Shown here in pieces: positions 10,419 through 19,592 of a stretch of 64,000 nt of DNA; the stretch's first letter is position 1; each line of letters starts with the position of its first letter. The notes under the pieces are model-generated. The model had not been told where the DNA came from. It ran no database searches and was given only the letters and a program-made list of their open reading frames with translations. This DNA comes from a virus, in IMG/VR virus record IMGVR_UViG_3300045988_095842; one strand, written 5' to 3'. The position numbers and the translations under genes were made by a program.

Positions 10419-11000
10419 ATGGAATATCGACTAGAAAAGCTAACTTCTGACATGCTCGCCGACTCGCGAATTTGCAAGCAGAAAAGCCAACAATATATGG
10501 CTAAAGAGCTTGGAAAATCGCTTTCGACAATCCAAAACTGGGAGACTGGCGCGACTGTGCCAAAAATGACTGACATGCTCAGGTGGTTTAATGTGCTCGG
10601 AATCAATCCACTTCGGGCTTGTCTGGAATATGTCCATCCAGTCATCTACAAAGGAATCCATGACGGCGATGACATTGAAAAAATCGATAAAGCCCTCCTA
10701 CACTATATCCAGAATGTCGCTCCGGAACGAGAACGCCGTGAACTTGCTTTCTGCATTTTCGGAGAGACAGGATCTTCATGGTCTGCACAGCTTGATGAGC
10801 TGACCGCACGGAATCATCTGCCAATCCAAGACAGAATCAGCATATCTAAGATGACTGTCGATACCTATGAACTGGACTCTGCGATAGGAAAGCTGCGATG
10901 CGATGACAAAATTCTTCCAGATATCCAGAATGTGAAGGGCGCAATTTCAAAGTGCACAGAGTGTGCAAAAGACGGAAAAGATGCCTACCAAAACACATGA
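10419..11000 (+). CDS. XRE-family helix-turn-helix protein with an uncharacterised C-terminal domain
   Basis: Contains QQYMAKELGKSLSTIQNWETGATVP. A GAGGA RBS precedes the ATG at 10419. It is a plus-strand gene in an otherwise minus-strand region. Confidence 0.7.
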   Translation: MEYRLEKLTSDMLADSRICKQKSQQYMAKELGKSLSTIQNWETGATVPKMTDMLRWFNVLGINPLRACLEYVHPVIYKGIHDGDDIEKIDKALLHYIQNVAPERERRELAFCIFGETGSSWSAQLDELTARNHLPIQDRISISKMTVDTYELDSAIGKLRCDDKILPDIQNVKGAISKCTECAKDGKDAYQNT

Positions 11001-11117
11001 CATAAGAAAAGGCAGCCTCATCCGAGAGGCCGCCAAACAGGAAAAGAAATGACGAAGAAACGATACTGATATTATACGATTCTCCCTTCGTCTTTTCAAT
11101 TTTGTGCAGGAAGAGCC

Positions 11118-11146
11118 TTGACTGATTGAAAAGTGCGGTGTATATA
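11118..11146 (+). promoter_or_regulatory. sigma-70/sigA-type promoter directly upstream of the CRISPR-like repeats
   Basis: TTGACT, a 17-nt spacer, then TATATA (within gtgTATATATATAAAT). Confidence 0.5.
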
Positions 11147-11153
11147 TATAAAT

Positions 11154-11289
11154 ATGTTCCCTGCGTTAGCGCGGGTGACCCGTCCGGTTAGGTTGCAGCC
11201 TCCGGACTTTTTTAATGTTTCCCGCGTTAGCGGGGGTGACCCTTTAAAAATGATGGGCCAAGTGTTTCCTGCGTTAGCGGGGTATAAGA
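11154..11289 (+). CRISPR. Stand-alone type I-E-like repeat cluster: 2 full repeats plus 1 degenerate repeat, with spacers of 33 and 19 nt
   Basis: R1 ATGTTCCCTGCGTTAGCGCGGGTGACCC (11154-11181). R2 ATGTTTCCCGCGTTAGCGGGGGTGACCC (11215-11242). R3 GTGTTTCCTGCGTTAGCGGGGTATAAGA (11262-11289). All three carry a CCYGC-GTTA-GCGGG hairpin. Confidence 0.55.
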
Positions 11290-11291
11290 AA

Positions 11292-11321
11292 AGGAACCGG
11301 ATTTTTCCGGTTCCTTTTTTC
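11292..11321. terminator. bidirectional Rho-independent terminator
   Basis: Hairpin AGGAACCGG-ATTTTT-CCGGTTCCT, flanked by an A-run and a T-run. Confidence 0.65.
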
Positions 11322-11330
11322 TCTTTTCTG

Positions 11331-11549
11331 TCATTCCGGTCGCCACCATGCGGCCAGATCCGTTTCTTTTTCATGTGATCTTGCGAAATCTACCAGGTCA
11401 TCCCACATCTTGTCCGGATCATCATATTTATGGTAATCCAGCCCTGCGAACTCACAAAGGCCTTCATAAACCTCTGTGTCGAAGTCGTTCCAGCACTCTG
11501 CTTTTTCGATTGCTTTCATCGTTTCTTTAAATTCTTTCAAAGTTGTCAT
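11331..11549 (-). CDS. small acidic hypothetical protein
   Basis: 72 aa ORF. Confidence 0.55.
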   Translation of the reverse strand: MTTLKEFKETMKAIEKAECWNDFDTEVYEGLCEFAGLDYHKYDDPDKMWDDLVDFARSHEKETDLAAWWRPE

Positions 11550-11620
11550 ATCGTTCCATCCCTTCCGGCCTGTCGGCCTTGTTTGACTAAATCTTTGACT
11601 AAATCTTGGACTATCTTGAA

Positions 11621-11890
11621 CTAAATTTTTCTTCCCATCTTCTCAGATACCGCAGCCAAAATGTACTCACTCATACTTACCCCTTCCTTCCTGGCAGCTT
11701 CCCTGATGGCAGCTTTCTCTCCTTTTGGAAAGGCAAGGCTTATCCGATCATAATTTTCTCTTATATAGTCATTCTTGTACTTGACCTGATCAAACGGTTC
11801 TCCTTTTTTCTTCACGCTTCCTCCTTGATCTTGCCATGAAAACCTCTTATACTGCTGATAAGAGATTTGGGCGGCTTCTGGCAAGTCCAC
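11621..11890 (-). CDS. ribbon-helix-helix (Arc/CopG-like) DNA-binding protein
   Basis: The C-terminal RISLAFPKGEKAAIREAARKEGVSMSEYILAAV segment is typical of RHH proteins. Confidence 0.5.
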   Translation of the reverse strand: MDLPEAAQISYQQYKRFSWQDQGGSVKKKGEPFDQVKYKNDYIRENYDRISLAFPKGEKAAIREAARKEGVSMSEYILAAVSEKMGRKI

Positions 11891-18305: not shown

Positions 18306-19592
18306 TCAATTTTTTTGTTGCTCTCGCATTTTCAGCGATTGCCGGTACTGCTCAGCCGGTGCAATGTACGTAAAATCTGGTGTACCATCAAAATTCTCGT
18401 GCACCACCTTCTCGATCTCTTTAAGAGATACCCGGAAAAACTCTCGTCGCTGATTCACGAGATTCAGCTTTCTGTCCGCAAATGCATTGTGCAGCGCCGC
18501 CTCCAGCTTCGGTGCGTCCTTCGAAAAAATCATTGCATGGATATCGAAATCGAACGGAACAGATGCATCTCCGAGCTCATCCACACGATCTTCCGGAACA
18601 AGGCGTCTCGTCATACCAATCTTATAGACATTCTCACCGAACGCCCCAATATTGGAAATCACATATACATACCCGGCTTTCTGATTCGCCTCGCGGTAGT
18701 CCACATCCTTGAACTCCTTGTCAATCTTTTTAAGCTGATTTTCAAGTTCTTCCTTCTTTGCTGCCAAGGCTGCCTGTTCTTCCTGCGGTGCTTCTTTGAT
18801 TTGCATCTTGAGTTGCTTCAGAGCGTTTTGATAATGCTTCTGTTCTTTCTCCAGTTTCTTACGCTCTTCCTCAATTTCCCTGGCAAGCTTCTGCTCTTCA
18901 CGCAGTCTCGCTCTGGCCTCTTTCTGCTCTTCCTTCTCTTCTTGCTTCTTTTCCTGGTACTCAAAAGCAAGATACAGCTCTTCAAGCTTTAGCTGATAGT
19001 AATCGGAAGTAATGCGAATCGACATGATTTCTCCAAGCTTCGAGATAGCATCTCTGGATCTCTCAATTTTCTTTTCGCTTGCTTCCAGATTACTGTACCG
19101 CACATGCTCTATAGCATCGTCACACTCTGCATTGAAGGCACGAAGAAGCAACTTTTGCGTGTCGGCGACCATCTTCTTTCCTTTTCGCACATCACCATTG
19201 ACCGACCACGAAGCGATCCCGGTAACAGCAGACCCATCTCGTATCATGTCTTTCTGCTCAGCACGTATGCCAAGGAGTTTTGCTTTATACTCTTCAGAAT
19301 GCATAAACGGATAGTGCGGAGTATACAAGCCAAAACTCTGGAGAAGTACTTCGTCACGAGTTTCTACAAGCTCATCCTTGACTCCTTCCAGTTCTGCATT
19401 TTTAGCATCAATTTCGCTTTGTATTGCATTGCATGCATCCTTGAGCTTGTTGTACTGCGCAGTAGCCTTTTCAACTTCGCCATTTACTCTGGCAAGCTCT
19501 TCCTCAAGAGCAATAACCTTTTTGCCATCATCTGGCAAAAGCTCGCGCAAACGCTCAATTTCCTTCTTTTCTTTAAATCCGAACAGTGACAT
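18306..19592 (-). CDS. DUF4041 coiled-coil plus T5orf172 (MUG113, GIY-YIG-like) domain protein
   Basis: The C-terminus GYVYVISNIGAFGENVYKIGMTRRLVPEDRVDELGDASVPFDFDIHAMIF...EFF matches the T5orf172 pattern. The middle region is long and KE-rich. Confidence 0.75.
   Translation of the reverse strand: MSLFGFKEKKEIERLRELLPDDGKKVIALEEELARVNGEVEKATAQYNKLKDACNAIQSEIDAKNAELEGVKDELVETRDEVLLQSFGLYTPHYPFMHSEEYKAKLLGIRAEQKDMIRDGSAVTGIASWSVNGDVRKGKKMVADTQKLLLRAFNAECDDAIEHVRYSNLEASEKKIERSRDAISKLGEIMSIRITSDYYQLKLEELYLAFEYQEKKQEEKEEQKEARARLREEQKLAREIEEERKKLEKEQKHYQNALKQLKMQIKEAPQEEQAALAAKKEELENQLKKIDKEFKDVDYREANQKAGYVYVISNIGAFGENVYKIGMTRRLVPEDRVDELGDASVPFDFDIHAMIFSKDAPKLEAALHNAFADRKLNLVNQRREFFRVSLKEIEKVVHENFDGTPDFTYIAPAEQYRQSLKMREQQKN

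Follow-up and report, generated by a model that had tools for sequence, protein, structure and literature searches.

A phage-borne cluster of type I-E-like CRISPR repeats as a candidate source of crRNA-like anti-CRISPR RNAs

Repeat-copying RNA anti-CRISPRs are recent (Racr in 2023, Cracr in 2024-26) and have been tested mostly in Proteobacteria. Here we describe a cluster of three repeats that resemble those of type I-E CRISPR arrays, with a promoter and a terminator of its own, between positions 11118 and 11320 of the IMG/VR virus record IMGVR_UViG_3300045988_095842 (64,000 nucleotides; this whole stretch of DNA is called the window below, and other loci fetched for comparison are given L numbers). 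Among the closest described systems, Racr elements consist of a solitary repeat, and the program SRUFinder discards candidates with a second repeat within 100 bp (PMC10651486). The phage type I-E arrays of the Cracr class, which yield RNAs resembling CRISPR RNA (crRNA), have pseudo-spacers (psiS) of 21-24 nt, two to three units, and a defective, poorly processed last repeat (bioRxiv 10.1101/2024.10.29.618823). An element is assigned to the Cracr class when its psiS matches the spacer of a host CreR or CreA over at least 9 nt proximal to the protospacer-adjacent motif (PAM), or matches a site with a flanking PAM in the promoter of cas or creT. In the host CreR RNAs, the first pseudo-repeat (psiR1) keeps the 5′-handle bases and the second (psiR2) keeps the 3′-handle bases, and the spacer is shorter (10.1101/2023.03.10.532045). 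Viral regulatory mini-arrays have also been described (Shmakov et al., 10.1101/2023.03.03.530964).

A repeat search located three 28-nt repeats on the plus strand, at 11154-11181 (R1), 11215-11242 (R2; 89% identity, or 25/28) and 11262-11289 (R3; 68%), in agreement with the coordinates and the 25/28 identity given in an earlier note on this DNA. All three fall inside 136 nt, with a start-to-start spacing of 61 nt from R1 to R2 and 47 nt from R2 to R3, and direct reading of the sequence gives inter-repeat gaps of 33 nt (11182-11214) and 19 nt (11243-11261). The core pattern TTYCCYGCGTTAGCGSGG is present three times in the 64 kb relative to an expectation of 0.12, a count of three was reached by 0 of 100 shuffles, and a pattern search for the repeat core elsewhere in the 64-kb window found nothing similar. 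Upstream of R1, a -35 box TTGACT (11118-11123, plus strand) was read directly from the sequence, followed after a 17-nt spacer by a -10 box TATATA (11141-11146, plus strand) that ends 7 nt before R1, and transcription is predicted to start at about the first base of R1. This promoter is missing from the promoter-scan list because the scan rule demands a T at position 6 of the -10 box; the relatives have TATTAT or TACTAT in this place, and the scan calls a promoter there (10/12 in L043). A bidirectional intrinsic terminator with a 15-bp stem (11287-11320) closes the array and is shared with a convergent gene for a 72-aa protein.

The near-consensus promoter and the bidirectional terminator described in the earlier note were both recovered, and the anatomy supports its view of a self-contained transcription unit derived from type I-E repeats, next to a plus-strand XRE-type gene (10419-11000) that flanks the array on one side. 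The array sits outside any CRISPR-cas locus, on virus-encoded DNA. As had been proposed, the window appears free of cas genes: neither Pfam scans, which covered the neighbouring genes plus another 20 large open reading frames (ORFs; the largest in the window encodes 739 aa), nor the precomputed annotation, which covers about 31 kb of the contig, revealed a Cas domain.

R2 (plus strand) is the canonical full repeat of the family described below, ATGTTT-CCCGC-GTTA-GCGGG-G-GTGACCC, and is identical in L043, L051 and L052. R1 (ATGTTCCCTGCGTTAGCGCGGGTGACCC, plus strand) is a divergent full repeat that is the same in L180 and L181; RNA folding places its hairpin one position off, in the register CCUGCG-UUAG-CGCGGG, and its GUGACCC handle is kept. 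The terminal repeat R3 (plus strand) has a conserved stretch of 21 nt (11262-11282), equivalent to the 3′ handle with the Cas6e hairpin, followed by 7 degenerate nt (TATAAGA), and the terminal repeats of natural arrays decay likewise. The hairpin of R1 does not have the form CCYGC-GTTA-GCGGG that the earlier note gave for every copy, and R3 lacks the GGTGACCC tail. The handle, given as 8 nt in the earlier note, is 7 nt long (GUGACCC) by analogy with Streptococcus thermophilus CRISPR4 (PMC3890593). The first gap holds S1 (GTCCGGTTAGGTTGCAGCCTCCGGACTTTTTTA, 11182-11214, plus strand), a 33-nt insert of spacer length that folds into a terminator-like 10-bp bulged hairpin followed by U6, and the second holds psiS (TTTAAAAATGATGGGCCAA, 11243-11261, plus strand), a 19-nt pseudo-spacer whose homologues in the relatives are 16-22 nt long.

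The repeats belong to the S. thermophilus CRISPR4 (St-CRISPR4) class of type I-E. The St-CRISPR4 repeat (DGCC7710) is GTTTTT-CCCGC-ACAC-GCGGG-G-GTGATCC (GTTTTTCCCGCACACGCGGGGGTGATCC) with 33-nt spacers, and Cas6e of this system cuts after nt 21, so that the 33-nt spacer of the crRNA is flanked by a 5′ handle of 7 nt and a 3′ handle of 21 nt (PMC3890593). The layout of R2 is the same, namely 28 nt with a 6-nt flank, a stem formed by nt 7-11 and 16-20, a tetraloop, an extra G and a 7-nt handle GUGAYCC. The CCCGC/GCGGG stem and the 61-nt period are also common to the two, whereas the loop is ACAC in St-CRISPR4 and GTTA in the window, the handle is GUGAUCC in the former and GUGACCC in the latter, and the 5′ flank is GTTTTT as opposed to ATGTTT or GTGTTT. 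When metagenomes were scanned with stem and handle held constant and any loop allowed, at least 120 loci were listed, most of which are true arrays of period 61 with repeats GT[C/T/G]TTTCCCGC-NNNN-GCGGGGGTGATCC. In L087, genes for Cas3 (Cas3_HD), Cse1, Cse2, Cas7 (CT1975), Cas5, Cas6e (PF08798), Cas1 and a Cas2-DnaQ fusion lie beside a GTCTTTCCCGCATACGCGGGGGTGATCC array. Arrays of the class thus adjoin a type I-E cas operon, and the type I-E assignment is a tested one.

Natural arrays of the class differ from R2 at 3-6 of 28 positions, the nearest among the matches listed being 3-4 positions off. Their spacers, counted in the fetched type I-E arrays, are 27-37 nt long, with none below 27 nt and 2189 of the 2290 (95.6%) at exactly 33 nt. 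When the 19-nt core of R2 was compared with 185,579 species genomes of GTDB (one genome per species), it was found at 7 loci only. One of them is an array in Thiopseudomonas, and the other six are single or mini sites, including two one-spacer mini-arrays in Bacillota. The core is therefore not an element scattered in the manner of repetitive extragenic palindromic sequences; such scattering is what the earlier note had named as speaking against its proposal.

Other stand-alone units came to light in these scans. One-spacer (33-nt) mini-arrays of the same type I-E class are present in L068, L079, L115, L140, L101, L108, L150, L033 (Peptoniphilus sp. KCTC 25270) and L035, a Bacillota metagenome-assembled genome (MAG) in which the mini-array is next to a tRNA gene. 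Those of L035, L068/L079 and L115/L140 have their own recognisable promoter and/or terminator, and L079 and L115/L140 have a common terminator and different spacers. These one-spacer units look like classical mini-arrays on mobile elements. Solitary or paired I-E-like repeats with the core CCCCGCGTTAGCGGGG were seen in three unrelated IMG/VR contigs (L003, L004 and L005), and a single copy that equals R2 over 25 nt in an alphaproteobacterial (Devosiaceae) MAG (L031); these repeats are possible solitary repeat units or Racr candidates.

Relatives of the element were fetched with its exact sequence and with homologues of the 72-aa protein as baits. It was found in 12 samples, among them ERZ27229686, SRR31228263, SRR31239529, SRR29133965 and ERZ27287215, as 8 sequence variants on two unrelated phage backbones. 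All 8 variants have a promoter, at least two repeats and a terminator in common, and there is no variant with a solitary repeat, so that an RNA anti-CRISPR in the solitary-repeat (Racr) sense, one of the roles suggested earlier, does not describe the family. In the alignment of the 8 variants, the -35 region TTGACTGATTGAAAA is unchanged in 7 and has one substitution in L179 (TTGACTGATTGAGAA); the -10 box that follows it is TAT[T/A]AT or TACTAT, and the distance from the -10 box to the repeat is 6-7 nt in all of them. The terminator is also kept in all variants, with changes in loop and stem.

The variants differ in how many units they carry. In L043 and L051-L055, the order is promoter, R, psiS (16-22 nt), R′ and terminator, and in L180 and L181 it is promoter, R1, S1 (the same 33 nt), R′ and terminator. 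The window and L014 have both units in series (R1-S1-R2-psiS-R3), and L056 and L179 have two short units (R-psiS1-R-psiS2-R′, with psiS of 21 and 18 nt). The minimal recurrent layout is therefore a promoter, a full repeat, a pseudo-spacer, a last repeat with its first 21 nt only, and a terminator. Indels between variants fall exactly at repeat boundaries, and this gain and loss of units is array-like evolution. R1 and the middle repeat of L056 have two stem substitutions in common, which points to recombination among arrays and not to fresh acquisition by Cas1-Cas2.

Every variant has the 7-nt handle in its upstream repeats, and a last repeat that consists of the first 21 nt and then decays to TATAAAA. 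A repeat with the handle and, after it, a repeat with the hairpin are thus kept throughout; no less would suffice for a crRNA-like RNA that has both handles and could load into Cascade, and this matches the descriptions of CreR and of the phage Cracr elements. Variation in the stems is limited to C or U opposite G, and 97.4% of the cells are paired when read as plus-strand RNA; such wobble-only changes point to a constraint at the RNA level on the plus strand. The length of psiS changes between 16 and 22 nt by indels in A-runs, and its first 3-9 nt differ; in the same alignment, conservation is higher in its 3′ half (GATGGGYCAA) and at its TTWTA start than in the promoter spacer.

The cassette is also mobile. 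Homology between L043 and the window begins at the -35 box and extends through the 72-aa gene; in the L043 group, the cassette is next to the portal and terminase genes, and the large terminase (TerL) has no similarity to that of the window. In the near-identical phages L048-L050, which have the XRE flank of the window and a 72-aa gene of 94% identity, an unrelated cassette of about 190 nt takes the place of the array, which indicates that the slot exchanges small non-coding or peptide cargo, and in syntenic phages with a 56-63% identical XRE protein, the slot is empty. The cassette thus behaves like accessory or anti-defence cargo. The replacement cassette (L048:3228-3541, also in L049 and L050) contains a perfect 9-bp hairpin (AGCCTATGG...CCATAGGCT) and a 20-codon ORF (MEKDYAPAPSGYHFSFASYI).

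On balance, we favour with moderate confidence the interpretation that the locus is a phage-borne mimic of a type I-E mini-array that makes crRNA-like RNAs, which hijack the Cas6e and Cascade of the host, and that it falls in the class of viral regulatory mini-arrays or Cracr. This interpretation starts from what was observed directly, namely the anatomy, the repeat class, the conservation of the family, its modular evolution, the movement of the cassette between phages and a spacer length outside the normal range; transcription, processing by Cas6e, loading into Cascade, an anti-CRISPR effect and any DNA target are inferred. The near-consensus sigma-70 promoter would start transcription at about the first base of the first repeat, and host Cas6e would cut each repeat after nt 21. 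The R2-psiS-R3 segment would then yield an RNA of about 47 nt, made up of a 7-nt 5′ handle (GUGACCC), the 19-nt pseudo-spacer and a 21-nt 3′ hairpin. Loaded into a shortened Cascade, this RNA would permit DNA binding without R-loop locking or recruitment of Cas3, and it would compete for Cas proteins with the crRNAs of the immune response. It would probably also guide Cascade to a host promoter (that of cas or of a linked gene) and repress it, and R1 with S1 upstream would most likely be an extra decoy or dosage element.

The abnormal length of psiS supports this interpretation. When the spacer of the S. thermophilus complex (StCascade) is shortened by 6, 12 or 18 nt, the complex assembles and binds DNA, but it forms unlocked R-loops only and there is no Cas3 cleavage; locking needs about 28 bp (PMC6859484). 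The short-spacer unit therefore cannot be an interference guide, because shortened StCascade never licenses Cas3. The earlier suggestion of a mini-array or an RNA anti-CRISPR was in the right neighbourhood, but the short unit, which has a psiS of 16-22 nt in all variants but L180/L181, is not a classical interference mini-array; a viral crRNA-like regulatory RNA (Cracr or regulatory mini-array), a class that was absent from that note, fits better. The same architecture was seen on the host side in L087, where a CreR-like element between a tRNA gene and cas3 (about 11510-11586, minus strand) has a handle-bearing repeat, 21 nt (TTTTATGTTTCGTGTTCTATC) and a repeat that decays after nt 21; it is a host parallel with the arrangement R-21 nt-R′.

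Several results weigh against this interpretation. At E<=10, Rfam gave no CRISPR direct-repeat family (CRISPR-DR) and no other credible family, only sub-threshold matches driven by the terminator. The GTGACCC handle is in none of the at least 120 metagenome loci listed, and the scan of 185,579 species genomes gave no Bacillota array with the exact repeat. Scans of genomes, metagenomes and phages did not find the host, the cognate cas locus or the DNA target. The longest match of psiS or S1 in any fetched locus, by seed scan and blastn-short, is 12-14 nt, and no target of the CreR-like element of L087 was found within 1.4 kb. The A-run indels and variable first bases of psiS fit an unconstrained linker as well as they fit a guide that tracks different host promoters. 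No compensatory double changes were seen in the hairpin, and shuffles equalled the observed value, which makes covariation uninformative. Finally, efficient termination at S1 would leave R2-psiS-R3 with little transcription in the window.

Further searches for targets gave similar results. Neither the window and the family loci nor the at least 120 type I-E metagenome loci, which do not include the true host locus, contained a PAM-flanked partial match to any psiS. A looser search gave AT-rich noise, and because the seeds are rich in A and T, weak matches were given no weight. In IMG/VR, handle plus psiS seed gave 0 matches, and short-spacer pairs of the repeat class gave 3 chance matches in GC-rich coding DNA. 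The 2290 natural spacers matched the phage and its relatives over 14-19 nt only, as expected by chance, and no fetched array targets the phage. The sole lead to a host is the nearest isolate phage, Faecalibacterium phage FP_Brigit, with 50% portal identity; the host is probably a member of the gut Clostridia. The search for integrase homologues recorded hits on the window's own contig only, and a match to an Agathobacter plasmid was rejected as a host lead, because it involves only a terminator that follows a sucrose phosphorylase gene and is unrelated.

S1 departs from the spacers of natural arrays. The earlier note had recognised that the 33-nt gap can fold and is followed by T6, and we confirmed a 10-bp bulged hairpin with a fold of -14 kcal/mol before U6. 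In a comparison with 1996 distinct natural spacers, 1% fold as well, 1.7% have a T6 run and 6% start with G, as S1 does. A hairpin of -10 kcal/mol or lower together with a T5 run, both of which S1 has, occurs in 2 of the 1996 (about 0.1%). No protospacer for S1 was found in IMG/VR (with every sixth position free), in the window or in the fetched loci. The view of S1 as a typical type I-E spacer thus holds for its length, but not for its hairpin and U-run. S1 is identical in the window, L180 and L181, and absent from L043, L051-L056 and L179; in L180/L181, it is the sole spacer and the intact terminal hairpin is still downstream, which argues for read-through and for a role within a crRNA-like RNA. 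We infer that S1 is a terminator-like decoy or dosage element and not an acquired spacer.

A tentative and rather unlikely extension is that the locus is a composite RNA anti-CRISPR with two modes, in which R1 and S1 are a decoy, the short-spacer unit is a repressor guide of the Cracr type and the 72-aa protein is a co-inhibitor, with units shuffled between phages by repeat recombination. R1 and S1 would then be a purpose-built dummy crRNA or Cas6e sponge: termination at S1 would release an RNA of a repeat plus a hairpin, and read-through past S1 would give a 61-nt crRNA with a hairpin-locked guide, so that Cascade would be filled with a blind guide. We know of no description of a structured terminator as a decoy guide for Racr or Cracr, and the terminator-like "spacer" S1 is the one feature of the locus that may be new.

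The evidence can also be read in other ways. In a pure repeat decoy similar to Racr, hairpins and handles would merely draw Cas6e, Cas7 and Cas5 off into complexes that are dead or aberrant, the DNA between repeats would be a linker, S1 would be a terminator and there would be no DNA target. The drift of psiS from 16 to 22 nt through A-run indels, with variable first bases, is consistent with this, as are the failure to find a psiS or S1 target in the searched data, the near absence of a hairpin with a U-run from natural spacers (2/1996) and the predicted transcription start at the repeat, as in solitary repeat units; Cracr RNAs themselves are reported to be partly competitive. However, the solitary repeat that defines Racr is lacking, every variant has handle and hairpin repeats, and the conservation of the 3′ half and the start of psiS suggests some constraint on its sequence; we regard a pure decoy as rather unlikely. 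A decoy for Cas1-Cas2 adaptation, or a CRISPR-array integration site, was set aside, as a tyrosine integrase is encoded by the phage itself at a distance of 45 kb and the repeat next to each extra unit is not what that unit copies.

It is also improbable, in our view, that the locus is a classical viral mini-CRISPR array in which S1 is a true spacer, host Cascade and Cas3 destroy a rival phage or plasmid, and the short unit is a decayed remnant. R1 and S1 do make up exactly the canonical 61-nt period (28 + 33), S1 is identical in two array configurations, and one-spacer 33-nt units with their own promoter or terminator exist in L033, L035, L068/L079, L115/L140, L101 and L150. The lack of an S1 protospacer in IMG/VR, the window and the fetched loci, the terminator-like form of S1 and its G start (6% of natural spacers) count against this view, and the short unit, far from being a remnant, is shared by more variants (6/8) than any other part; in addition, the repeats are identical to those of no array found (the nearest, among the matches listed, are 3-4/28 off). 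The remaining alternative is that there is no CRISPR function, and that the locus is a neutrally drifting fragment of a host array, or a set of attenuator or terminator hairpins or protein-binding sites for neighbouring genes. The failure to find a cognate host in the searched data fits this view, as does the position of the hairpins between convergent genes, where terminators are expected. We nevertheless consider a lack of CRISPR function very improbable, given that promoter, repeats and terminator are conserved (12 samples, two phages) while flank and linker diverge, that conservation is selective, for the handle in the upstream repeats and for the 21-nt hairpin part in the last one, that stem changes are of the wobble type only, and that the core is not scattered (7 loci in 185,579 genomes).

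The element lies in a temperate tailed phage, and the window encodes a tail fibre, a holin, an ELLD endolysin and, further on, a portal protein, a large terminase, a capsid protein, RecT and a tyrosine integrase; the genes for the tail fibre, holin and endolysin are on the minus strand, just upstream in the reading direction of these genes. A public contig of 64,684 bp (ena:ERZ27229686:k119_9331) has the same genes at an offset of +8, so that the window covers practically all of the phage contig and has no flanking host DNA. The gene convergent with the array (11331-11549, minus strand) encodes a conserved acidic three-helix protein of 72 aa and is next to the array on two unrelated phage backbones. 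Because relatives were fetched through this gene, the linkage of array and gene is biased by the design of the search. The 72-aa protein and its homologues (P0013-P0025) have an invariant WNDF...GLDYHKYDDP motif. There was no Pfam, PHROG or PDB sequence match, and an AlphaFold2 model (three helices; predicted local distance difference test score 78) had no significant Foldseek match in PDB or BFVD. The protein is a candidate partner, for example a protein anti-CRISPR. The gene is also found without the array in L044-L050, and of these L044-L047 are elements of 50-270 kb with a reverse transcriptase, an integrase and HicA.

Between the XRE gene and the array, a strong minus-strand promoter TTGAAA-17-TATAAT (11/12) lies back-to-back with the array promoter in the region 11003-11099, with a terminator hairpin (11034-11011) and a T-run about 40 nt past it. 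This region, which is conserved in L048-L050 and L180, is predicted to encode a pyrimidine-rich small RNA of about 60 nt on the minus strand, just beyond the XRE stop codon. In phages of the L043 type, a 67-68-aa ribbon-helix-helix (RHH) gene is directly upstream of the array on the same strand (L043:5367-5570, minus), with equivalents in L051-L056 and L179, and the -35 box of the array lies inside its last codons; the RHH gene of the window (11621-11890, minus strand; 22% identity) is on the far side of the 72-aa gene. The RHH protein could be an Aca-like regulator. Elsewhere in the window, the tail-fibre/baseplate module has an inserted gene (18306-19592, minus strand) for a protein of 428 aa in which DUF4041 and T5orf172/MUG113 (GIY-YIG-like nuclease) domains were identified; it may be a moron, homing or defence-related gene.

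Exact-pattern scans of IMG/VR did not detect the family. The exact repeat had 0 matches there, and a looser core gave 12 unrelated single matches, some to terminators and some to solitary I-E-like repeats, none of which belongs to the family. The XRE neighbour as bait retrieved nothing from IMG/VR, and the endolysin relatives end before the locus. Neither INPHARED nor PLSDB contains a counterpart of the region or of the 72-aa protein. No paper came up when the literature was searched for the string of the repeat core, the Cracr candidate tables being outside the scope of this search. Catalogues built on IMG/VR, INPHARED and PLSDB have probably missed the family.

The family would extend RNA anti-CRISPRs to temperate phages of human-gut Clostridia and to type I-E systems of the S. 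thermophilus kind, for which StCascade is a good in vitro platform, so that the predictions are directly testable. With the same promoter, repeats and terminator, the variants provide a natural series of spacers of 16, 18, 19, 20, 21, 22 and 33 nt in one- and two-unit forms, which could separate a decoy from a guide effect and measure the effect of spacer length on Cascade assembly. As a candidate for a new anti-CRISPR protein, the linked 72-aa protein is a reasonable choice.

In comparison to known systems, the superinfection-exclusion mini-arrays of SPV1 and SPV2 resemble the window element in having one or two spacers, no cas genes and a reliance on the Cas machinery of the host (PMC11656645), but their repeats are those of the host and their full-length spacers match related viruses, whereas the window has a shared spacer that is too short and an S1 with no viral target found. 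Racr elements of the RacrIF1 type are likewise intergenic viral repeat mimics directly after a promoter, with a proposed diversion of Cas6 and Cas7, and R1 with S1 (a repeat and then a terminator) resembles a solitary repeat unit; in contrast, the three repeats of the window would be excluded by SRUFinder. The psiR1-psiS-psiR2 architecture of CreR and of host regulatory mini-arrays is the same as that of the window (10.1101/2023.03.10.532045; Shmakov et al., 10.1101/2023.03.03.530964), although CreR, which is part of the cas locus, acts as a repressor of its own promoter, and the window element is on a phage. Cracr elements are defined by a match to host CreR or to a cas promoter, and no such match was found for the window element. 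CracrIE of the Salmonella enterica Se29 prophage is otherwise close to it: both are phage-borne single transcription units with no cas genes, two to three I-E-like units, short psiS and a defective last repeat, and such units are often beside small candidate anti-defence genes. The two differ in that CracrIE has 29-nt repeats of the E. coli/Salmonella type and the window has 28-nt repeats of the S. thermophilus type, and in that only the window has one unit with a full-length, terminator-like 33-nt insert.

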